From IMG/VR virus record IMGVR_UViG_3300037141_000177, positions 1 through 64,000 of that record: a DNA stretch of 64,000 nt; one strand, 5' to 3'. The notes below the pieces were generated by a model. That model saw nothing but the letters and a program-made list of their open reading frames with translations, was not told the origin of the DNA and ran no database searches. Each line of letters starts with the position of its first letter. Positions within the stretch are counted from its first letter, which is position 1. A program made the position numbers and the translations under genes. Shown here one piece after another: positions 8,271 to 44,251 of the stretch. This stretch comes from a virus.

Positions 8271-8286
8271 GTCGTGACGCCAGACT
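8271..8286 (+). promoter_or_regulatory. Candidate phage late promoter
   Basis: GTCGTGACGCCAGACT, 6 bp before ATG 8293. Confidence 0.7.
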
Positions 8287-8292
8287 CGCGTC

Positions 8293-9492
8293 ATGAGCTT
8301 GCTACCGTCTTTCTCCCTGCCGTCTATTGCGATCCCGACCGCGCTCCAGGTGCTCGGCGCTCCCGCGTCGCAGAAGGCCGGTGACCGTCCGATCAGCTTC
8401 TCGCTGGATGATTTGGCGACCGGAACGCTCAATACGATCGCGCTCAATATCCGGCCGGAAGAACTGACGCGCACCCAGGTATCCCGCTTGACCGTCCAGC
8501 AGACGCTGGGCGGTGCTTGGGCTGATGACTTCGGTGCTGGGCTGACGACGATCAATATCAGCGGCCACACGGGCTGGCGCGGCTCGTTCAGCGGTGGCGA
8601 TGGCATGGATCTCTTCGCGGCGTTGAGGGCTCAGGTATTCGATAACTGGCACATTCTGCGCAATCAGGCGCGAGCTAACGGGGTCGATCCGCGTTTCGTG
8701 CAGCTGGTATTCGCAGACGCGCTCGATTCGACGGTGGACGTGGTCGCGCCGATCAGCTTTACGTTGCGGCGGTCCAAGTCCCGCCCGCTGCTGATGCAAT
8801 ACCAGATATCAATGATCGCGTTGGGCGACATTCCGCCGCCCGCACCGCTTGGTTTCCTCGACTCGCTCATTCAGGCGCTCGGGCTCTCGTCTGTCATCGC
8901 CGCGATCAGTTCGATCGTCTCCACTATCAAGGCGGTCGTGGGCTTCGTGGAGTCGAACATCATCGGCCCGATCGTGGCGTTCATGGGCCTGGCGGTCAGT
9001 GTTTTCAACACGGCCGTCGCAATCATCGAAACGCCGGCCGCGCTCGTGAGTCTTGTGCTCGGCGTAGCCACTTCCGTGGCGCAGGTCGGTGTCAACATCT
9101 TCGGAACACTCGGTGCGGTGGTATCGAATTCGACGAATGTGACAGCGAACCTGATGGCTGTAACGGGTGCGTTTTCCGATATTTTTTGCGTGCTTAAAAA
9201 TTCGATCGCGCAAGCCAAGACGTACCCGATCTATACGGGGCTGTATGGCGCGTCGAACTGTTCCAGCACGGTTCCCGGCGCGAGTCCGGCGAGTCAATAC
9301 ACGCTTAGTGGCGTGAACCCCTTCTATGACGTGGTCGGGACGGCCACAACGCCGCCGGTCTCGGTGAGCGTGGCCGCACAGGTCGCCATCGACACGATTA
9401 TCTACACCGATCCGGTGCTGAGTCCGCTCACGCCGGCGCAACTAGCGGCGCTCATCACGACGATCACCAACGGGATCTCGATCACCGCATGA
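8293..9492 (+). CDS. Baseplate/tail tube initiator-like structural protein
   Basis: NIRPEELTR...QQTLGGAWADDFG...ISGHTG motif typical of myovirus baseplate genes; position. Confidence 0.6.
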   Translation: MSLLPSFSLPSIAIPTALQVLGAPASQKAGDRPISFSLDDLATGTLNTIALNIRPEELTRTQVSRLTVQQTLGGAWADDFGAGLTTINISGHTGWRGSFSGGDGMDLFAALRAQVFDNWHILRNQARANGVDPRFVQLVFADALDSTVDVVAPISFTLRRSKSRPLLMQYQISMIALGDIPPPAPLGFLDSLIQALGLSSVIAAISSIVSTIKAVVGFVESNIIGPIVAFMGLAVSVFNTAVAIIETPAALVSLVLGVATSVAQVGVNIFGTLGAVVSNSTNVTANLMAVTGAFSDIFCVLKNSIAQAKTYPIYTGLYGASNCSSTVPGASPASQYTLSGVNPFYDVVGTATTPPVSVSVAAQVAIDTIIYTDPVLSPLTPAQLAALITTITNGISITA

Positions 9493-10100
9493 CGACAATC
9501 TTCGACACGCCACTGGCTGGTTACCGGTTCGTCCAGACGCAATACGGAGACACGCTTCAGGCGTTCGCTGCGCGCGTGCTCGGCGATGCCACAAATTGGG
9601 CTCAGCTTGTTGCTCTGAACGGTTTGCTTCCGCCGTACCTGACCGACGATGCCGACCTCGTATCTGCGACGGTCGTTCTCAACGGCTCTTTCATCATGGT
9701 CCCGGCCTCGTCGCCCAGCTCGGCATCGACTGATCCGGACTCGGTGTTTAAGACGGATCTTCTGCTCACGCCTGACGGTTTCCTCGCGGTAGCGAATGGC
9801 GATTTCGCACTTGTATCCGGCGTGGCGAATCTCACGCAGGCGCTTGAGAACGCGCTCAACACCGACCAAGGCGAGCTGCTTTTTCATGACTCATACGGCA
9901 CGCTCATGCGCCGCCTCATCGGGACCGGTAACGGACCGACCGCCGGTCTGTTGGCTGCTCGATACGCGAAGCAGACCGTATCGGCCGATTCCCGCATCAG
10001 CAGTGTCACCAGCTCAGTGGCCACGGTGCTTGGCGTAGTGATCTCGACGGACGTGCAAGCACAGACGATCGCCGGAACAACTATTCCGATCACCACTTAA
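9489..10100 (+). CDS. Baseplate wedge protein (LysM-like N-terminus plus gp25-like domain)
   Basis: GDTLQAFAARVLGDATNWAQL LysM-like; GDFALVSG...GELLFHDSYG gp25-like. Confidence 0.75.
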   Translation: MTTIFDTPLAGYRFVQTQYGDTLQAFAARVLGDATNWAQLVALNGLLPPYLTDDADLVSATVVLNGSFIMVPASSPSSASTDPDSVFKTDLLLTPDGFLAVANGDFALVSGVANLTQALENALNTDQGELLFHDSYGTLMRRLIGTGNGPTAGLLAARYAKQTVSADSRISSVTSSVATVLGVVISTDVQAQTIAGTTIPITT

Positions 10101-10116
10101 CGGATAAGGAAACGAC

Positions 10117-11238
10117 GTGGCCTTTCAGATCAAGAATTTTGTCTCGATCGTCGCTTCGATGGTGAATCGTATAAAGGCGACGCAGACGCAGGTCGACGAT
10201 TTCAACGATGGAGCAATTGGACGTACGCTGGTCGAAGCACCGGCAATTGAAATTGATCAGCTGTACCAGCAGGCGTTCAACCTCGTGAGCGCTGCGATCC
10301 CGGTGTCGGTCTACACGTCGTTCAGTTTTGCTGCACTCCCGTCGCTCACGGCGACCGGCCTGGTGCTGGTGAGCATCGCGGCGCAGCCCATCGTGACGCT
10401 CGTCTCGGCGGGTTCGCAGTTTACGTCCAGCGGGACGCAAAACGTCTATGCCTCGACCGCGGACGTCTTGATACCGGCTGGGAGCACCAGCGCCGAAGTG
10501 CCGGTTTCGGCCACCTCGAGTGGGGCGGCATCAAACCTCGCGAGTGGCAATGTTTTCACGATGACGCCGGCGGCGACTGGACTCGTCGGTGCGACGAACC
10601 TGTCTGCTTTCGTGAGTGGGCGCGATGTCGAAACCGGCCCCCAGCAGTTCATTCGTTTCAACAACTTTATCTCGACACTGCCGCGGGGCACGGTGCCTTC
10701 GCTCTACTATGGCCTGTCGCTCACGTTTATCTCGGACGCCTTCGGGAACCTCATCGAGCGCGTGGTGTTCTCGAGTGTGGTTGAGCCATACGTGCTCGAT
10801 GATACGCAGCCGATCGCTTTGGTTAATGCCTTCATCCACAACGGGGTAGGGAGCACATCAAGTGCGCTCGTCGCTCAGGCTAACAAGATCATTTACGGGT
10901 ACTACCTGGCGAACGGTACCGCTGTCCCGGGCTGGAAGGCAGCAGGCATTCCAGTGATCATCGCGGCTGCGACCGAGGTGCCCCTCGCTGTCACCGGGCG
11001 GCTCACGGCGCTGGCTGGGTACGACCAGCCGACACTCTGCGGCCTGGCAGTGACGGCAATCTTCACGTACCTCCAAAACCTGAACATCGGCGCGACCGCA
11101 TTGTTCGCGGAGATCAGTGCGTTGGTGATGGCTATCCCGGGCGTGTCGAACTTCGTGTTATCGGCACCGGCGCCCGGAGTTGACACTCCGTCGACGCCGA
11201 GCACGAAAATCATGCCTGGCGTGATCGGAGTGACCTGA
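10117..11238 (+). CDS. Baseplate J-like protein
   Basis: DFNDGAIGRTLVEA, VLIPAG, SGRDVET...RGT, AIPGV motifs. Confidence 0.88.
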   Translation: MAFQIKNFVSIVASMVNRIKATQTQVDDFNDGAIGRTLVEAPAIEIDQLYQQAFNLVSAAIPVSVYTSFSFAALPSLTATGLVLVSIAAQPIVTLVSAGSQFTSSGTQNVYASTADVLIPAGSTSAEVPVSATSSGAASNLASGNVFTMTPAATGLVGATNLSAFVSGRDVETGPQQFIRFNNFISTLPRGTVPSLYYGLSLTFISDAFGNLIERVVFSSVVEPYVLDDTQPIALVNAFIHNGVGSTSSALVAQANKIIYGYYLANGTAVPGWKAAGIPVIIAAATEVPLAVTGRLTALAGYDQPTLCGLAVTAIFTYLQNLNIGATALFAEISALVMAIPGVSNFVLSAPAPGVDTPSTPSTKIMPGVIGVT

Positions 11239-11240
11239 CC

Positions 11241-12344
11241 ATGCGGCTCACGAAAACGCTCCTCGGCTACCTGAATCGGGTTTTCAACAAAGACCCGCTT
11301 GCGTACCTCGCTATCCAGCTTGACTACATGGGCGGCATGACATGGGAGGTCGCCGACGGGATATTCACGACCGTCGTTGTCGGTGGCCCCGGCCAGAACC
11401 TCACGGTCGACTTGTCGACATACACCATCGGCGGGCTCGTCGATTATCTTGCCGCGCAGGCTGGTTATTCAACGCCTTACTCGGATCACACCGCCGGCTC
11501 GAACCTGTCCGCGCTGATCCTGCTCGACGGTACCGGCGACATTTCGCTATCGAACGGCGACCACCTGAACGCGTATTCGAACGTGCTGTGGGCGTACATG
11601 GAGGCGAACGCGGCAGAGCTGCAGCTTGCGGAAACGCAGATTCAGAACCTTGCGCTCGAGATGGCGACCACGACCGCAGACTCGGTCTGGCTTGACACGC
11701 TGGGCGGTTACTACAAGGTGCCGCGCCTGGTGAATGAGCTCGACGGCACGTATGGTCCGCGCATCATTGCGCAGGTGCTGCGGCCGGCCAACAACAACGT
11801 GGCCCTCGAGGCCGCGATACAGGTCTACACGGGGCAGTCCGCACTGGTGACCGATGTGGTGCTGCCTGGTGTTACCGGGAATGTCTACAACGGTGCCCAT
11901 GTACACGACGGGTCAATCTTTTACAACGCAGTGTCGACGCCCATCTACGGGCTGTTCGATGTCGCCTATTCCTACGATCTGATCAATGGTGGCGATCTGT
12001 CCACGTTTCAGGCGACCGTGGTCGGTCTGATCAACACCTTGCGTGCGGCCGGCACGCATATGCGCTCGATCTCGCTTCAAGGGTCGGTGCTCGCCGATAC
12101 GCTCACGCCACCGACCGATTCCTTCGGGAACATGAGTGTCGTGCTCGCGCCGGCCGACACGCTCACGCCACCGACCGATTCAGTGTTGGCAGGCGCTGCG
12201 CTCGCGCCTTTTGCGGACACGCTGGTGCAGCCTTCAGATTCCGACACGCTGACGATCAATTACAACTACACGTACAACGGCGTTCGCACATACAACGGGG
12301 CCATCAACCATCAAGGCGGGACGGTTGGCACTGAGCATCTATAG
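11241..12344 (+). CDS. Baseplate wedge protein (gpI-like)
   Basis: TADSVWLDTLGGYYKVPR...E.D..Y..RI motif; follows J. Confidence 0.7.
   Translation: MRLTKTLLGYLNRVFNKDPLAYLAIQLDYMGGMTWEVADGIFTTVVVGGPGQNLTVDLSTYTIGGLVDYLAAQAGYSTPYSDHTAGSNLSALILLDGTGDISLSNGDHLNAYSNVLWAYMEANAAELQLAETQIQNLALEMATTTADSVWLDTLGGYYKVPRLVNELDGTYGPRIIAQVLRPANNNVALEAAIQVYTGQSALVTDVVLPGVTGNVYNGAHVHDGSIFYNAVSTPIYGLFDVAYSYDLINGGDLSTFQATVVGLINTLRAAGTHMRSISLQGSVLADTLTPPTDSFGNMSVVLAPADTLTPPTDSVLAGAALAPFADTLVQPSDSDTLTINYNYTYNGVRTYNGAINHQGGTVGTEHL
12093..12242 (+). repeat. Intragenic 60-bp period repeat (ADTLTPPTDS x2 plus degenerate third)
   Basis: GCCGAYACGCTCACGCCACCGACCGATTC at 12093 and 12153; degenerate copy at 12213. Confidence 0.8.
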
Positions 12345-35492: not shown

Positions 35493-36584
35493 TCAGTCCA
35501 CCGACATTTGCGATTGCCGCGCCGTCGCACGGGCGGCTTGCTTGGCATCCGGCTTGGCCTCGAGCGCTTCGCGGCACTCGCGATAGATCGCATCGAGGTC
35601 GGCGCGATGCTCGAGCACGGCGGTGCGTATCTGCTCGGCTGCTTCGTCGAGCGCATCGTTGGTCGAGGCGTTGCGCATCTCGAGCGCGATGGCGTTCATC
35701 AGGTCGCTTCCGGCGTTCGCAGAGGCGCCGCCTTGCCGCTGGTCTGGTCCGGGGGATGTGGTGTTGGCCTTTTCGTTGTCGCCGTGATGGCGGTGCGTTT
35801 CTTCGCTCGAGCCGCTTTGGTCGTTCGCCGGGGGCGTTTCGGCTTGCTTGACCAGCATGTCGCCGTCGATGGTCAGCCCACGGCCTTCGTCGGCTGCTTC
35901 GCTGGCGGTGATCGCGTTGATCATTTCCTGCGATTTCGGCATGTACTTGAGCACCTGCAGCAGCGCTACTTTCCTGCCGTACATCTCCATGTTTCCGTAC
36001 GCGTAATGCTTGGCCCCGACCTTGTTGTATTTCTTGAGGTGCTTTGCCACGCGCGCCATCGTCCACACCTCGATCACCGGCCAGTCGCCCCCCTTGATCC
36101 GGCCCACCGCGTAGACGTGCGTGATCTTGGCAGGGTCATCCTCGCCCTGCGGCTTGTGGGTGATGAACGGCTTGTCGCCCTTGGCGTATTCGAAAATGTC
36201 ACCGTCGTACACGGCGTCTGTCCACACCCCGGCGCGGCCCGAGCGCGACACCAGATCGACCAGTCCCATCCACCCGGGCACGAACGTGCAGATGCCCTTG
36301 TAGGGCACGAGAAAGCCCTGCCCGCCGACGATCTCGAGGCCGAGGTTGGCCGAGATGCTCAGCGAGGCGTAGACGGATTCCTCGGAGCACGCGAGCAGGT
36401 CGGGGTTCTTGTTCATCGCGACCACTGCCGAGCGCACGAGGCGGCTCGCATCCATGTGCTGCGGCATGCCTTTCGCCAGATTGCCGATACGTGATTCGAG
36501 GTATCGAACCTTCGTGGCGAATGTCTGAACGGCCCGGTTCTCCGGGTTGTCCCGCGTTTTCATGTCTGCGAGCTGTGTAGCCAT
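35493..36584 (-). CDS. recT: RecT-family ssDNA annealing protein
   Basis: LLAC...S....LGL, FLVPYK, GLVDLV.RSG, VYDGD.F, M.RK.AL....KYMPKS. Confidence 0.92.
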   Translation of the reverse strand: MATQLADMKTRDNPENRAVQTFATKVRYLESRIGNLAKGMPQHMDASRLVRSAVVAMNKNPDLLACSEESVYASLSISANLGLEIVGGQGFLVPYKGICTFVPGWMGLVDLVSRSGRAGVWTDAVYDGDIFEYAKGDKPFITHKPQGEDDPAKITHVYAVGRIKGGDWPVIEVWTMARVAKHLKKYNKVGAKHYAYGNMEMYGRKVALLQVLKYMPKSQEMINAITASEAADEGRGLTIDGDMLVKQAETPPANDQSGSSEETHRHHGDNEKANTTSPGPDQRQGGASANAGSDLMNAIALEMRNASTNDALDEAAEQIRTAVLEHRADLDAIYRECREALEAKPDAKQAARATARQSQMSVD

Positions 36585-36624
36585 CGTGGTGTCTTTGTCC
36601 GTGGTTAAAGCGTGCGGGTGGAGG

Positions 36625-37452
36625 TCATGCGTGGAACAAACACGTTTTCCAGCGAGCGCAGAATTTCTCTGAACAAAGCGTGGATTGCGGGTTGGGGGGG
36701 AAGTCGCCGGACTTGAAAAAACCGGCGGCGTATTCGATCAAGCCTTTCTGCGTGGAGGTGCCGACCATCGACTGCTTGGCGTCGAAGATCGGACTCACGA
36801 GGGCGGGGGCAGCGGAGGTGGTTTGGAGGGCGATGATTTGGGAGCCGACGGTGCGCTCGCCCGTGTTCTCCTCGTACATCAACTCGTAAGCGCCCAGCTG
36901 CGCGACGCGGCCCTTCAGGATCACGCGGTCCTGTTCAATGAGGCGTGAGCCGCTCTTGATGTCGGGGATGACGACGCCACCCTCGGCTTCGGCCACGCGT
37001 GCGCGGTCCATCGTTCCCTTGAGGCGGATGGTGATGCCGTCGACGTCGATCTCGACCGGCTCCATCAGCATCTCGACGGCTTTGAAGGTGAAGCGGGGGC
37101 TGATCTCGACGCAGTATTTGGTGTGCAGGGTCAGGCCGATGACTTCGGCCTCGCGCATGGTGATGCTGCGGTCCTGCTTGTAGTCGACGTCGTCGGTGGG
37201 GTGGTGGAGCGTGTGAATGAACACGTCCGCTGCATCGCTGGCGCTGATGTTCGTGCGGTCGAGGCGGGACTGGTCGAAGGCGGCGGTGCTGGCGTGGATC
37301 GCGGTGCCGAGCGTGGCGCGCAAGCCGGAGGGGCGCCGCAGGCCGAGGAGGTGTTCGCCCTCCCAGGCATGCGCGCAGTCGAAAAGTCGGCCCCATGAGG
37401 AGGCGCGGACGTCGATCGTGCGCGTGTACAGCGGGTTGTGTGTCTTGTCCAT
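36625..37452 (-). CDS. PD-(D/E)XK exonuclease (RecB/Cas4-like)
   Basis: GTAIH, LKGTMD, DIKSG, QLGAY, terminal C....C.RW..C. Confidence 0.85.
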   Translation of the reverse strand: MDKTHNPLYTRTIDVRASSWGRLFDCAHAWEGEHLLGLRRPSGLRATLGTAIHASTAAFDQSRLDRTNISASDAADVFIHTLHHPTDDVDYKQDRSITMREAEVIGLTLHTKYCVEISPRFTFKAVEMLMEPVEIDVDGITIRLKGTMDRARVAEAEGGVVIPDIKSGSRLIEQDRVILKGRVAQLGAYELMYEENTGERTVGSQIIALQTTSAAPALVSPIFDAKQSMVGTSTQKGLIEYAAGFFKSGDFPPNPQSTLCSEKFCARWKTCLFHA

Positions 37453-40639: not shown

Positions 40640-40660
40640 CCAGCTTCAGGAGCAGATGTG

Positions 40661-41251
40661 ATGGAAAAAGACGCGGCGGTTGCGGTCCTTTACTTCCGGC
40701 CAGATGGGGTGCCCGGGCGCTATTTCGAGTGTGCGCATTACGGCGTGATGAGCGTGGGGGCGTGCGCGCGTAATTTCTCGGCGGCGCCGGAGTCAGCCAA
40801 GACCGGGCGTCTGCAGCGCTGTGTCGGCTGTGCGATCGGCAGGAAGCACGCAGGGACGGTGCTCGACGAGCCGGTGAGCGCGCGGGTCGCCACCTCGGTG
40901 GTGTATCGCATCGCGTGTGTGCGGTGTCGTCGCGACGGCAAGCATTCGGGCACGCGGCTGATCGGTCGGCTGCGCCTGGTGCGGGGCCACACGATTTGCG
41001 TGAGCTGCTTCAATCGCGAGGCCGAGGTTCGCCGCGGTGCGAATTCGAAGGGCGCCAGGCCGAAAAAATGGGCGGGTTTGTTCTCCACGCGTGCGGCCTA
41101 CGTGGCGAGCGCGAAGGCGGTCGTGCTCACGCATCCGAGTCCAGTTGTGGACCGCATTGAGCTCGCGCTGACGTTGATTCGGTGCGGCCACGACAGCGGC
41201 ATTGTGTGGGCGCGCTCCGTGGTCCAGCGCGACATCGAGGCGAAGGGGTAG
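40661..41251 (+). CDS. Cys-rich (Zn-binding) hypothetical protein
   Basis: CVGC..G..H, CVRC, ICVSCFNRE; SD AGGAG. Confidence 0.7.
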   Translation: MEKDAAVAVLYFRPDGVPGRYFECAHYGVMSVGACARNFSAAPESAKTGRLQRCVGCAIGRKHAGTVLDEPVSARVATSVVYRIACVRCRRDGKHSGTRLIGRLRLVRGHTICVSCFNREAEVRRGANSKGARPKKWAGLFSTRAAYVASAKAVVLTHPSPVVDRIELALTLIRCGHDSGIVWARSVVQRDIEAKG

Positions 41252-41254
41252 GGC

Positions 41255-41659
41255 GTGCGGGTGTTCCAGTTCGATCTGTTCGATCCCACCGCGACGAAGG
41301 ACGCCGGCGAGCCCGAGGCCGTCAAAAGGCCGCGTCTGTCCGCTGGCTGGCAGTTGGCTAACCACGCGTGCCGATTCTGTTTCGGGCGCGTGCTGCAGCG
41401 TGTGGCGGGGGGCAGGGTGGTCGAGGTGCGCTGCGCGGAGTGTGGGAAAAGCGCGGACGGCTTGCCGCGGATGCTTTGTTGCTGCGGGGCGGAGTGTGGC
41501 GATCTCGGGTATGTGCTCGAGTGCGTCAGAAACCGGAACGTGACGAATGAAGTCCCGCACGAGATCCTCGTGCGCGAGCGGCTCGTGCCCGTGACGACGG
41601 AGGTACGTCCAGCTTCCCGGCCGGTGCTCGAGCATGGCACCTCGGGGAGAGAAAAGTAA
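41255..41659 (+). CDS. Cys-rich hypothetical protein
   Basis: HACRFCFGRVL, CAECG, LCCCG. Confidence 0.7.
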   Translation: MRVFQFDLFDPTATKDAGEPEAVKRPRLSAGWQLANHACRFCFGRVLQRVAGGRVVEVRCAECGKSADGLPRMLCCCGAECGDLGYVLECVRNRNVTNEVPHEILVRERLVPVTTEVRPASRPVLEHGTSGREK

Positions 41660-41671
41660 CGCTGCTTGGCG

Positions 41672-41687
41672 GTCGTGACGCGAGACT
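41672..41687 (+). promoter_or_regulatory. Candidate late promoter
   Basis: GTCGTGACGCGAGACT upstream of the HU-like gene. Confidence 0.65.
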
Positions 41688-41726
41688 GGTTTCATCGAAT
41701 ACGGTTAGTTATCAACGGGAAATACG

Positions 41727-42014
41727 ATGAACAGGCTGCAGTTTGTTGAGGCTGTCGCGAAGATTTCGAAGCTCGGTGTCAAGCAGGTGGCGTCGGTGTT
41801 GCTCGGCATCGAGGAAGTCGCGGCAGCGGAAATTAAAGAATTCGGCCTGGTGCGCGTTCCCGGCCTGGTGATGATCAAGCGGCTCGACCGCGGCGAGCGC
41901 CTGGTGCGCAATCCGAAAACGGGCGAAGAGTTTCTGATGGGTGCCACGATTACGGTGCGATCGAAGCCTTCGCTGGCGTTTTCGGACCGCATCAAGCTTG
42001 AGAATCCTGTTTGA
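41727..42014 (+). CDS. HU/IHF-family DNA-binding protein
   Basis: MNRLQFVEAVA, VRVPG, RNPKTGE. Confidence 0.85.
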   Translation: MNRLQFVEAVAKISKLGVKQVASVLLGIEEVAAAEIKEFGLVRVPGLVMIKRLDRGERLVRNPKTGEEFLMGATITVRSKPSLAFSDRIKLENPV

Positions 42015-42191
42015 CGGTGCGGTCCCGCCAAGCAGGTTCAGAGGCGGTCAATATCACTTGCAGATGTGAGCGTGGCGGGTGTGGGCCGGTCATCGAGGCA
42101 TCACACAATCGGACAGGCCCGAGCTCCCGGGTTAGTCGCGCGTCGCATCGGACGGCCGAGAAAGAACGGCACCAACACCCCAAGGACGCAG

Positions 42192-42560
42192 ATGAATATC
42201 TCTTGGTTCAAGCTTCGGGGCGATCGTCGCCTCGAGGCGCTTTTAGTCAACGTACATCACAAACTAGGATTAATTATGAGCGCTCTTGACGACCTGACGG
42301 CAGAAGTAGCCGCGAACACGGCAGTGGAAGCATCAGCTGTCACCTTGATTACGGGCATCGCTGCGCAACTCGCTGCGGCACTCGCAGCATCGTCGGCCTC
42401 GGAAGACCCGGCGCTGGTCGCTCTGACGGCCCAGCTCACCGCGAGCGCATCGGCATTGGGCGCAGCAGTCACGGCGAACACTCCGGCTGTCGCACCGGCT
42501 GATCCGGCGCCCGCCGATCCGGCACCGTCTGACCCTGTACCAGCTGATCCGACCGCTTAA
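42192..42560 (+). CDS. Ala-rich hypothetical protein with PADP tail
   Basis: SD AAGGA; alternative start 42277. Confidence 0.7.
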   Translation: MNISWFKLRGDRRLEALLVNVHHKLGLIMSALDDLTAEVAANTAVEASAVTLITGIAAQLAAALAASSASEDPALVALTAQLTASASALGAAVTANTPAVAPADPAPADPAPSDPVPADPTA

Positions 42561-42619
42561 TTGAGGTTCGGTTAAAAGGGCGAAAAGCAGATGCGTGGGG
42601 CTCATTAGCTATGAGCCTT

Positions 42620-42695
42620 TTCCGATAATCGACGCACGAAACCCCGGTTAGGCGTCGGCCCGGAAGGCCAGATTATTGGCCCTGATGGTGCGGAA
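42620..42695 (+). ncRNA. Type II hammerhead-like element with core variant
   Basis: CGCAC-GAAAC...GTC-GGCC...GGCC-CTGATG-GTGCG plus ATAATC/GATTAT pseudoknot; A9 absent. Confidence 0.5.
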
Positions 42696-42775
42696 CGGGC
42701 GCGTAGCGGAAGTAGCCCCCAATCGATGGCCCGGGCGTATCAGCCGGCGGCAATGTCTAAACCTTGGAGTGAAAG

Positions 42776-43081
42776 ATGACCGATACCTTGCAGCAAGCCG
42801 CAGATGCGGTGTTGAAAGATGCGACGGATGCTGCTGCGGCCGAGGCCACGTCGGGCACTGCGGCTGCTACGCTGTTGGTGGCCGCCGACGCGGCTCACAT
42901 CGTTGATGAAGCGGTGATCGCAGGCACTGGCGTGGTCGCCGCGGCCTCGACCGAGATCGAAGCGGAATTGCCTGCTGCCGAGACGCTGTGGGAAAAGATC
43001 AAGGCGGATCTAGCTGGCATCGTCGAATGGCCTTTGCATGAATGGGAATATCTCGAAGCGGCCGTTAAACGGCATCTTTAG
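42776..43081 (+). CDS. Acidic Ala-rich hypothetical protein
   Basis: SD GGAG; 101 aa. Confidence 0.65.
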   Translation: MTDTLQQAADAVLKDATDAAAAEATSGTAAATLLVAADAAHIVDEAVIAGTGVVAAASTEIEAELPAAETLWEKIKADLAGIVEWPLHEWEYLEAAVKRHL

Positions 43082-43107
43082 GCTGGACGGGCCGGGTCGA
43101 ACCCGGC

Positions 43108-43203
43108 ACCTTCAGAGAACGGCATCGGGGCCTTGCGGCCTGCGCCCCGTCGGGAGTGGATCCACACCGACGATGGTAAAGACCGGTGCCGTTCTCTGAA
43201 GGT
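43108..43203 (+). ncRNA. C4-antisense-like three-way-junction RNA
   Basis: 21-bp closing stem, two inner hairpins, single-stranded TGCGCCC and ATGGTAAAGA. Confidence 0.55.
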
Positions 43204-43240
43204 AAAGCCGGTCGCGATGCCGGTAGCAGAACCAACCTCT

Positions 43241-43346
43241 GCGGATCGCTAAAAATGCCGGGTTGCCACCCGGGACGGCGCGTGCGACGAGCAGGTTAAT
43301 GCTGACTGGACTTCGTGTGCCGCTGGAGTAGCGACCAGACGCCTTC
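43241..43346 (+). ncRNA. Kissing-loop structured RNA module 1
   Basis: Loop TCGCTA (43246) complementary to loop TAGCGA (43329); ends in GCCTTC. Confidence 0.4.
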
Positions 43347-43395
43347 TTCGAACCCCAGCCCGGGATGTAATGGGCACCTCGGTGGAATGCCGAGG

Positions 43396-43481
43396 GCCAT
43401 CATGCAAGACGGCTCATGGCCCGTTCGGGCCAGCGGGCAGCGCGAACACGATTTGCTTGTGAGCCGTCTTGACATGAAGGT
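43396..43481 (+). ncRNA. Long-stem structured RNA
   Basis: CATG-CAAGACGGCTCA / TGAGCCGTCTTG-A-CATG with inner TGGCCC-GTTC-GGGCCA hairpin. Confidence 0.5.
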
Positions 43482-43580
43482 GAATGCGCAGGCTGATGCG
43501 CAGCTGCACAAGCGGTCCTTGTTCGCTCCTACGCGGGTGCAGCCGCCAAATGCCGGAAGATGTCAGCACCGGTCGCCTTC
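43476..43580 (+). ncRNA. tRNA-like cloverleaf with kissing loops (module 2)
   Basis: Closing GAAGGTGA/TCGCCTTC, three hairpins, loops GCTGA and TCAGC complementary. Confidence 0.55.
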
Positions 43581-43949
43581 TTCGATCAAGTAGGCCACCG
43601 TCAACCACCAAGGAAACACCATGAGCTATTCGTTTAATATCCGCGCTGCTTCGAAGGCCAATGCGCGCGAGCGTGCAGCCCAAGAGTTTGACAGTGTGGT
43701 CGCTTCGCAGCCGGTGCACGCGCAAGACCGAACGGCGGCACTCGCGGCGCTCGATGCGTACCTGGACCTGCTGGTGGATGACGCCACCCGCGACATCATC
43801 GTGTCAGTCAACGGCTCGGTGAGCTATGACTGGGCACCGGATGTCGAAGCCACGGCGGTCCCACTGACCAACGCTTCGGTGGGCGTGGGCGCGTACTTGG
43901 CCCCCCGCGAAGCGGCCGAGTAAGCCACGAGTCACCTTCTTCGATCAAG
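43572..43949 (+). repeat. 19-bp direct repeats flanking one gene
   Basis: GTCGCCTTCTTCGATCAAG (43572-43590) and GTCACCTTCTTCGATCAAG (43931-43949). Confidence 0.8.
43621..43923 (+). CDS. Hypothetical protein
   Basis: 100 aa, SD AAGGA. Confidence 0.75.
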   Translation: MSYSFNIRAASKANARERAAQEFDSVVASQPVHAQDRTAALAALDAYLDLLVDDATRDIIVSVNGSVSYDWAPDVEATAVPLTNASVGVGAYLAPREAAE

Positions 43950-44033
43950 CGTAACGGTGCCCTCTGGTTTTGCTTGCGCTGACAGAGATTCATTGGAATG
44001 CGTCCGCAACGTGGCATCGTGACTTGAGTAAGG

Positions 44034-44058
44034 GAACCGGCTTCGCGCCGGTTTTTTT
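44034..44058 (+). terminator. Intrinsic terminator at convergence point
   Basis: GAACCGGC-TTCGC-GCCGGTTTTTTT. Confidence 0.75.
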
Positions 44059-44251
44059 ACGCCCGCGTTCTGAAGGGGGAACGCCGCACGCGGATGCCGC
44101 GCGACTCGCGCTCGGCGAGCAGCTGGTGGTAAAGCCTGCTCATGTAGATGGCGGGTGACGAGATGCCCGTCTCTCGAGCGGCCCGGTACGCGGTGGCACC
44201 GTCCTTGATTAGCTCGATTGCGGCCAGCATCCGGGCGCTCGGTATGTTCAC
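44057..44251 (-). CDS. Small HTH protein
   Basis: G.TAYRAARETGISSPAIY. Confidence 0.65.
   Translation of the reverse strand: MNIPSARMLAAIELIKDGATAYRAARETGISSPAIYMSRLYHQLLAERESRGIRVRRSPFRTRA

Follow-up and report, generated by a model that had tools for sequence, protein, structure and literature searches.

Small stable RNAs encoded in the transfer RNA (tRNA) regions of phages have stayed unexplained since the early work on T4 and T5, and RNAs C and D of phage T4 are similar to the stable RNAs of phage T5. The tRNA region of T5 (NC_005859) carries six features annotated as "stable RNA with unknown functions", namely rnaI, rnaIII, rnaIV, rna1, rna2 and rna2H, of 103–172 nucleotides (nt). The locus described here, at positions 42016–43950 of the IMG/VR virus record IMGVR_UViG_3300037141_000177, invites comparison with them. 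The window that was analysed is the first 64,000 bases of this 73,971-base-pair (bp) record, which has an estimated completeness of 80% and represents an uncultured Burkholderiaceae phage of about 90 kilobases (kb). A sequence-only reading had proposed an array of structured RNAs interleaved with small genes over the whole locus. The follow-up presented here found two copies of a two-part module, a short boundary hairpin followed by a long hairpin (hairpins A and B), and the window holds a real, reduced, tRNA-less member of a type of phage RNA island that recurs in related phages (numbered here with an L), with two well-supported structured modules.

The stable RNAs of T5 are similar in several ways. 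They are about 100–170 nt long and lie among tRNA genes and open reading frames (ORFs) of about 55 amino acids, behind promoters of their own; the five that were folded all close on their own 5' and 3' ends around branched interiors; and they belong to no Rfam family. However, their closing stems are of 5–12 bp, against 17–26 bp here, no boundary hairpin stands ahead of them, and T5 has kept many real tRNAs whereas the window has none. No sequence similarity between the two sets of RNAs was seen, no alignment having been made.

Another example is phage P1 (NC_005856), a phage-plasmid of 94.8 kb and of similar genome size, in which the ban operon (about 68.7–71.0 kb) starts from a repressor-controlled promoter and runs through a structured leader of about 650 nt into tRNAs. 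This leader folds with a z of -3.4, the stretch folded including two tRNAs, and at about 69315–69347 it carries the hairpin GCCGG-AAACGUAC-CCGGC 3 nt ahead of tRNA-Asn, much as a boundary hairpin stands ahead of tRNA-Met in L025. In P1 the unit goes on into tciABC and ban, but here it stops at a terminator; the only annotation in the P1 leader is a "dicF-like region". With the T5 stable RNAs annotated and a boundary hairpin present in the P1 leader, "undescribed system", as the sequence-only reading had called the locus, is too strong a term. A literature search found no description of the module that joins a boundary hairpin to a long stem.

Hairpins of polycistronic transcripts that are processed by RNase III are also known, as in the R sites of phage T7 and the stalks of ribosomal RNA operons, and the hairpin left behind by the cut stabilises the RNA upstream of it. 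The likeness lies in the intergenic stems of about 20 bp within a polycistronic transcript, while the T7 sites differ by a characteristic internal loop, enclose no branched body and have no boundary hairpin ahead. The YrlA Y RNAs, for their part, are 80–130 nt long and combine a long stem made by the two ends with a tRNA-derived body that has conserved T and D arms (PMC4201824). Some hairpins of the relatives likewise enclose bodies resembling T and D arms (L031, 9466–9565), but hairpins A and B have no such arms and no Ro60/TROVE gene accompanies them.

Only two elements of 42016–43950 fold far better than chance when the spacers and modules are scored as z against dinucleotide shuffles. Each is a short GC-rich hairpin with an adjoining long hairpin:

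43091–43107, + strand: boundary hairpin A, GCCGGG-TCGAA-CCCGGC, T-arm-like by its sequence, with the same stem as the T-arm of tRNA-Gly in L024
43108–43203, + strand: long-stem hairpin A, with a 21-bp closing stem ACCUUCAGAGAACGGCAUCGG / CCGGUGCCGUUCUCUGAAGGU around two small hairpins
43378–43395, + strand: boundary hairpin B, CCUCGG-UGGAAUG-CCGAGG
43396–43478, + strand: long-stem hairpin B, a paralogue of A, with the base GCCAUCAUG...CAUGAAGGU

Module A (43086–43206) reached a z of -7.43 and module B (43372–43481) a z of -6.31, with 0 of 200 shuffles as good in either case; the other spacers gave unexceptional z from -0.7 to -1.9. All 21 positions of the stem of hairpin A are paired, 20 of them as Watson-Crick pairs and one as a U.G that pairs only on the + strand. 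Hairpin B has a perfect 12-bp core, CAAGACGGCUCA/UGAGCCGUCUUG. When the window was scanned with a descriptor, the top two stem counts were those of 43108–43203 (21 bp) and 43396–43481, the latter being the highest of all with 23 pairs and 2 irregularities. If the relatives' module is defined by a stem of at least 16 bp that spans 78–210 nt, lies within the post-HU island and is on the tRNA strand, both of these hairpins qualify. The short hairpin ends 0–3 nt ahead of the long stem in both modules. The two long-stem RNAs had been correctly recognised as ending in TGAAGGT: hairpins A and B begin with ACCUUCA and GCCAUCA, respectively, both end with UGAAGGU, and both fit the stem-base consensus of the relatives. 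Also borne out were the short hairpins at 43091, 43323, 43378 and 43552, each followed by RCCWTC. This hexamer is common, with 243 copies in the window, so that five copies in 870 nt are only a mild excess.

The hairpin at 43091 (GCCGG/GTCGAAC/CCGGC) is a near copy of the T-arm of the L024 tRNA-Gly (GCCGG/TTCGAAG/CCGGC), and its position matches that of the GCCGG-GGAAAGA-CCGGC hairpins of L024, L025, L026 and L035. In L025 the boundary hairpin is followed by ACCAGUUU and leads straight into tRNA-Met. Taken together, this junction and the T-arm likeness suggest that the boundary hairpins may descend from tRNA ends, or work together with them. A separate observation from the descriptor scan is its third-best match, a short hairpin with a 20-pair long stem at 36557–36698 (+ strand), which overlaps ORFs on the minus strand.

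A search with o197, a Cys-rich protein encoded upstream of the locus, recovered the relatives L024 (63% identity), L025, L026, L031 and L032 in IMG/VR and matched 31 places in genomes, including the 90,347-bp contig of Pararobbsia silviterrae DHC34, which is the L031 DNA, and several metagenome-assembled genomes of Burkholderiales. These Burkholderiaceae phages of about 90 kb are possibly phage-plasmids. The gene order o197-o134-HU is kept in L024, L025, L026, L031, L032, L034, L035 and L036, and the longer order of o197, o134, HU, island, terminator and a homologue of the convergent gene is common to the window, L024 and L031. In five syntenic relatives the slot after HU is a tRNA/RNA island, where between one and six copies of the two-hairpin module accompany 2–5 tRNAs or tRNA-like RNAs. 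The L024 island has tRNA-Met and tRNA-Gly about 1.1 kb apart with no convincing ORFs between them, that of L025 has tRNA-Met and an odd tRNA, and that of L031 has five tRNAs or tRNA-like RNAs, namely tRNA-Gly, Met, Glu and Trp and a 100-nt tRNA-like RNA. By reading of the sequence, sigma-70-like promoters (TTGnnn, 17 nt, TATGAT/TAAGAT/TATAGT) precede the arrays in L024, L025, L026, L031 and L035, and terminators follow them in L024 and L031. Bordetella phage PHB04 and Pseudomonas phage Dolphis, distant annotated relatives by o197, have no comparable island.

The tRNA-like RNA of L031 (9466–9565) scores 49 bits against RF00005 and lies inside an extended acceptor-like stem of 15–17 bp (9456–9574). 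This RNA has good D and T arms, and it is a non-decoding tRNA mimic, since a 5-nt loop takes the place of the anticodon loop and the CCA end is absent.

The long hairpins of the relatives span 78–137 nt (one of them about 200 nt) and have closing stems of 17–26 bp. When a strict rule required at least 17 of 18 pairs counted from the stem base, 2–5 long hairpins were present on the + strand of the island in each relative, against 0.04–0.38 in shuffles, and the window island had one against 0.14, scoring only one because hairpin B has a bulge. A lax descriptor (15/17 pairs) had proved too noisy, with about 4 matches per 2 kb in shuffles, and was replaced by stricter rules. Many of the long hairpins start 0–3 nt past a short GCCGG-loop-CCGGC hairpin whose loop is often GGAAAGA, and the arrangement of short hairpin and long stem is present in L024, L025, L026 and L035; among the L026 hairpins, 7 of 8 on the + strand are preceded by GCCGG-loop-CCGGC, compared with 0 of 9 on the - strand. 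The stem base has a loose consensus, 5' CAYCWYCA(YG) and 3' (CR)TGRWGRTG, beyond which the sequences differ between copies and between phages yet remain complementary. The flanking-gene proteins of these relatives are only 47–63% identical, and the stems have no detectable nucleotide identity. The + strand folds better than its reverse complement in 17 of the 20 long hairpins from the window and four relatives, often by 10–19 kcal/mol. This argues for selection on a single-stranded nucleic acid of the + strand, most simply an RNA with the same orientation as the tRNAs.

The kinship of hairpin A was assessed with a covariance model, R1, whose seed was five hairpins of L024, L025 and L026 only and in which 18 closing-stem pairs were modelled. 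R1 finds members outside its seed at L026 8941–9018 (E 7.5e-6), L026 9983–10091, L025 9800–9923, L024 9339–9445 and L031 9588–9694. With the filters off and both strands of the window searched, the top match was 43109–43202 on the + strand, with 17.8 bits and a rough E of 0.013, and it was stronger there than on the - strand. This lends modest support to the predicted membership of hairpin A in the relatives' hairpin family, modest because any long hairpin scores well with such a model and because the E-values are rough.

The locus is carried at the far end of a + strand gene block, made up of o197, o134, HU and then about 2 kb with three small ORFs. Its other features are:

40658–41251, + strand: o197, Cys-rich protein
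41255–41659, + strand: o134, Cys-rich protein
41672–41687, + strand: copy before the HU gene of the repeated motif GTCGTGACGC[CG]AGACT, candidate late promoter or activator site
41727–42014, + strand: gene of an HU-like DNA-binding protein (Pfam Bac_DNA_binding, E 8e-13), the synteny anchor
42015–42275, + strand: conserved non-coding leader after HU, aligning with L024 and L031
42276–42560, + strand: o94, an Ala-rich ORF of 94 amino acids from the ORF list, placed where L024 and L031 have their first island ORF
42561–42775, + strand: spacer 2, containing the "hammerhead-like" stretch 42620–42695 (fold z -0.69)
42776–43081, + strand: o101, a small island protein, supported by homologues
43204–43377, + strand: inter-module stretch with small hairpins, candidate tRNA-shaped module 1, from its sequence and repeat family D2
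43472–43583, + strand: candidate tRNA-shaped module 2; the minimum-energy fold of the piece alone is a four-way junction with GAAGGUG/CGCCUUC as its closing helix
43576–43590, + strand: direct repeat CCTTCTTCGATCAAG, copy 1, upstream of o100
43621–43923, + strand: o100, a widespread small phage protein (phrog_28387), supported by homologues
43935–43949, + strand: direct repeat CCTTCTTCGATCAAG, copy 2, downstream of o100
44028–44060, + strand: intrinsic terminator AACCGGC-UUCGC-GCCGGUU followed by U7, the end of the + strand unit, from the sequence and the hairpin list

Directly upstream of HU, at 41672, the sequence reads GTCGTGACGCGAGACT. This motif has 9 copies in the window where 1.24 would be expected, and 8 of them lie on the + strand. 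This excess makes the "candidate late promoter" of the sequence-only reading a real repeated signal; ahead of HU the motif is conserved in L024 and partly in L025, and it resembles a late promoter or activator site specific to this phage. Copies on the + strand at 8271, 12349, 13680, 17961, 41672, 53312 and 63732 stand ahead of gene blocks. The strong terminator at 44028–44060 faces a convergent gene (44057–44251).

Outside the modules the non-coding DNA folds in an ordinary way, and the statement that about 900 bp are largely foldable was an overstatement, the leader (42015–42275) reaching an unexceptional z of -1.87 and spacer 2 (42561–42775) one of -0.69. The leader is alignable with L024 and L031 over 42015–42180, with a 39-nt block 90% identical to L024. 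Its CCCGCCA/TGGCGGG helix (42023–42029 paired with 42072–42078), which had been pointed out before, is kept in L024 and L031 with other paired letters. The leader also has a boundary hairpin, GCCG-AGAAAGAA-CGGC, at 42155–42170, followed by ACC, and a terminator-like hairpin at 42212–42238. An ORF overlapping it (42011–42289) first seemed to be coding, several of the differences from L024 falling at third codon positions; it was rejected and read as non-coding because its GC content by codon position is flat (0.53 at third positions, GC3) and because the conserved block is a boundary hairpin that recurs in non-coding contexts. Spacer 2 has a terminator-like hairpin at 42599–42617, followed by TTTTCC, and shares the 12-mer GCGAAAAGCAGA with the intergenic promoter region of L024. 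The spacer 43082–43620 (539 nt) has a z of -5.4 on the + strand and of -4.8 on the - strand, a signal that stems from modules A and B.

The GAAGGT strands at 43198 and 43473 can pair either upstream or downstream, and in this respect the alternative folds that the sequence-only reading saw between neighbouring modules are possible. Module 2 (43472–43583), folded alone, forms a cloverleaf-like four-way junction that has its GAAGGU strand in common with hairpin B, though with an ordinary energy (z -1.21). Candidate module 1 would be closed by GAAGGU at 43198 and GCCUUC at 43341, and contains the first copy of hairpin-N-CGCCTTCTTCGA at 43323–43351; the fold of 43204–43350 gave a z of -0.85 without a cloverleaf, the piece folded having excluded the 5' closing strand. 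A long hairpin and the next four-way junction exclude each other, because the GAAGGU strand serves both, and on thermodynamic grounds the long hairpins are predicted to win.

The small genes fared unequally. Both o100 and o101 have homologues, while o94 has no Pfam or PHROG match and no homologue found, shows no significant similarity to the L024 ORF and has an atypical GC content (GC3 0.60, below the 0.74 of first positions, GC1), which leaves its predicted coding status the least certain of the three. The L035 island encodes a homologue of o101 (101 amino acids, 38% identity, E 5e-16), and o101 is therefore a genuine, if rare, island gene; one database homologue was found (P0050, 49% identity). 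Directly after the L035 homologue, at 10148–11517, two overlapping minus-strand ORFs form an IS3-like transposase pair, which appears to cut off that island. Proteins of the o100 family, phrog_28387, all begin with MSYSF and share a Q..H..D motif, and the family is widely present in soil phages and Burkholderia pseudomallei records. Its homologues in 22 other viral loci (L002–L023) lie in unrelated contexts, with no common flanking RNA, no tRNAs and no flanking repeats around them, so that o100 is no marker of the island. Single-protein scans of viral contigs with o100 and o101 found nothing. The exact repeat CCTTCTTCGATCAAG occurs in the window only at the two sites that flank o100. Three further ORFs (43315–43593, 43402–43593 and 43484–43624) have no homologues in the loci compared, and 2 of the 3 are atypical in composition. 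The last of these, a 46-codon frame, starts 5 nt past the Shine-Dalgarno-like GAAGGUGA at the foot of hairpin B and ends in an ATGA that overlaps the start codon of o100, an arrangement that is usual in translational coupling. In composition the frame resembles non-coding sequence (GC1 0.51, second positions 0.70, GC3 0.57).

Searches for known RNA classes gave no family for the region. ARAGORN called no tRNA gene, neither in the window nor over the last 10 kb or so of the record, and no RF00005 match appeared at E ≤ 10 in 41600–44200, whereas the relatives do score. Against Rfam, nothing reached the gathering score in the whole window, and the relaxed search (E ≤ 10) of 41600–44200 returned chance matches only, one of which merely picks up the 21-bp stem of 43108–43203. 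Since neither a tRNA nor an Rfam family matches, the hammerhead-like element named by the sequence-only reading fails; no hammerhead model matched at either threshold, and self-cleavage falls with it, the spacer concerned folding like shuffled sequence. Antisense regulators had been suggested as products. The rest of the record contains no match of at least 13 nt that is complementary to the island, which argues against an antisense RNA with an extended target; a C4 antisense RNA like that of P1 and P7 was rejected on the same absence of a complementary target and of an Rfam match. A reading based on RtcB repair was dropped as well, the record having no RtcB gene. The tRNA-mimic decoys of the sequence-only reading found no support and are pure conjecture for this locus. 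Searches of a phage collection by BLAST with the region and with HU returned no match.

The locus is probably an RNA-level array homologous to the islands of the relatives. A polycistronic precursor with structured RNAs between small genes, already proposed from the sequence, is the best-supported reading of it, because the locus is syntenic with the islands, the folding is asymmetric in favour of the + strand, a promoter-like motif lies upstream and a strong terminator (44028–44060) lies at the end. Given this homology, the long stems may serve as RNase III processing or stability elements, a possibility held with less than even confidence; with the same reserve, the hairpin RNAs may themselves be what functions, for instance as decoys or scaffolds that are tRNA-shaped or double-stranded. 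The likelihoods attached to the array, to RNase III and to functional products overlap.

What the analysis shows are the structures, their excess over shuffles, the bias towards one strand, the synteny and the repeated occurrence among relatives. For transcription, the cleaving enzymes and any function, we infer the following course. The region would be the distal, mostly non-coding end of a late + strand transcription unit that comprises the late-promoter-like 41672 motif, HU, the island and the terminator, with transcription probably running from the motif, and perhaps also from internal promoters, to 44028–44060. The canonical tRNAs are gone, and what is left is the leader, three small ORFs, two of them with homologues, and two copies of the RNA module, each a short GC-rich boundary hairpin with a hairpin of about 85–95 nt that has a very long closing stem. 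The precursor would be cut by host enzymes, by RNase III at the stems of 17–21 bp (about two helical turns) and by RNase P, RNase Z or RNase E where the alternative tRNA-shaped folds form. The products would then be discrete small RNAs resistant to exonucleases, together with short stabilised messenger RNAs (mRNAs) for o101 and o100, and the boundary hairpin, after a cut just downstream, would become the protective 3' end of the upstream RNA. Because a 7-nt strand is common to both (UGAAGGU against RCCWUCA), the long stem would compete with the closure of the neighbouring tRNA-shaped module. It is possible, although rather unlikely, that the modules belong to a widespread undescribed class of RNA arrays in P1-size phages and phage-plasmids, in which this 7-nt toggle between a non-decoding tRNA-shaped module and a long hairpin acts as a co-transcriptional switch that chooses between RNase P/Z and RNase III, the released RNAs having non-translational roles, for instance as decoys or scaffolds against host defences that target tRNAs or other RNAs.

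Other explanations place the structures in the service of the genes, or deny them a service altogether. They are unlikely to be nothing more than cis-acting controls of the small genes, that is, stabilisers of mRNA 3' ends, attenuators or translational gates in which Shine-Dalgarno-like GAAGG(U) strands are locked by anti-Shine-Dalgarno-like CCUUC strands, with no independent RNAs. The layout around the genes fits this idea: boundary hairpin A starts 10 nt past the stop codon of o101, the end of hairpin B, GAAGGUGAAUG, leaves 5 nt between a Shine-Dalgarno-like sequence and the ATG at 43484, the 46-codon frame that opens there overlaps the o100 start through its ATGA, and terminator-like hairpins follow HU and o94. 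However, that frame has the codon-position GC of non-coding sequence, a perfect 21-bp stem far exceeds what a stabiliser or a gate needs, and in the tRNA arrays of L024, L025, L026 and L031 the modules lie back to back without ORFs, where there is no gene to regulate. Still less favoured is functionless debris of a former tRNA island, made of pseudo-tRNA fragments, duplicated tRNA 3' ends and recombination leftovers. Zero tRNAs are left against 2–5 in the relatives, the hairpin at 43091 has the look of an orphan T-arm, the 3' ends of the form hairpin-N-CGCCTTCTTCGA occur in duplicate with one copy downstream of the mobile gene o100, and most spacers fold no better than shuffles, all as decay would have it. 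Yet neutral decay should break a 21-bp stem in which every position still pairs, two paralogous hairpins with different stem sequences are both intact, and the architecture persists in the relatives at the low identity of the flanking proteins and without nucleotide identity in the stems.

Quite improbable is a role at the level of DNA, with the inverted repeats acting as folded single-stranded or cruciform DNA, in the manner of attC or other sites of recombination or replication at the edges of cassettes, with the 15-nt direct repeats on either side of o100 as scars of cassette insertion and the cruciform-binding HU as a possible participant. The variable sequence with conserved structure and stem base, and the lengths of 78–137 nt, do resemble the architecture of attC; the CCTTCTTCGATCAAG repeats flank o100, whose contexts in other phages are unrelated; the HU gene is always adjacent, and the G.T asymmetry fits single-stranded DNA too. 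An integron attC, however, has RYYYAAC...GTTRRRY at the stem base and an IntI tyrosine recombinase in the element, and this candidate was rejected, the stem bases here reading ACCTTCA...TGAAGGT and GCCATCA...TGAAGGT. No tyrosine recombinase (PF00589) was matched in the 74-kb record, which at 80% completeness is no proof of absence. In the relatives, the hairpins surround tRNA-like bodies or lie next to real tRNAs, in arrays bounded by sigma-70-type promoters and terminators. Against 400 Burkholderiaceae genomes and three genomes carrying relatives the region gave only short matches at chance level, and the o100 homologues elsewhere lack the flanking repeats. The absence of copies beyond chance in these genomes also rules against a mobile palindrome, and a miniature inverted-repeat transposable element was rejected for having no repeated copies and because the stem sequences differ between copies. 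The least probable reading, hardly to be credited, is that of retron-like templates for reverse transcription or of Y-RNA-type partners of a Ro60 protein. It has in its favour that a long stem with a tRNA-like body is the plan of the Y RNA YrlA (PMC4201824). Neither a reverse transcriptase (RVT_1, PF00078) nor a TROVE protein (PF05731) was matched in the record or in four complete relatives, control genomes being matched in the TROVE search; no Y RNA or YrlA model matched in Rfam at the gathering score over the whole window or at E ≤ 10 in 41600–44200, and inside hairpins A and B there is neither a T-loop or D-loop motif nor a canonical T or D arm. With no reverse transcriptase, TROVE protein or tyrosine recombinase, the retron-like, Y-RNA and integron-like readings are all disfavoured.

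The proposal of a homologous RNA array has several points of its own to answer. The window itself contributes no more than two modules to the case, and R1 gives hairpin B 8 bits, which is not significant; R1 itself is partly a generic detector of long hairpins. The "covariation" among the relatives is partly built in, because their hairpins came from a hairpin search, and MAFFT with RNAalifold on the boundary hairpins gave no pairs, the alignment being out of structural register. G.T wobbles are tolerated in single-stranded DNA also, so that the strand bias is no strict proof of RNA. The tRNA-shaped alternative folds are thermodynamically ordinary, with z of about -1, and the phage record has no RNase III gene, so that processing would depend on the host.

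Even so reduced, the locus adds a high-GC betaproteobacterial lineage to the phages with such RNAs, a lineage in which islands of one kind are open to comparison among several phages of about 90 kb. The tRNA-less island with two modules is a natural minimal version, and with no tRNAs and only two modules it offers a clean test of whether the modules act without tRNAs. If it is true that the modules yield discrete RNAs that matter for infection, they would form a new RNA family, and the "tRNA islands" of phages would be more than patches for codon usage. If they are only punctuation for processing and stability, they would still give a useful annotation rule for gene-free stretches of phage DNA.

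A last observation concerns two of the relatives, in which the first module is preceded by some 0.8–1.1 kb that has no convincing ORFs (L025 8480–9290 and L026 7560–8715). These stretches match no Rfam family. They lie downstream of a sigma-70-like promoter with a palindromic GCGCATTGCG/CGCAATGCG element, have conserved blocks in common, such as a 15-bp stem, CCTAACTGATAAGCC/GGCTTATCAGTTGGG, and GGAAAGGCACC...CACTATAG, and may each be a large structured RNA.

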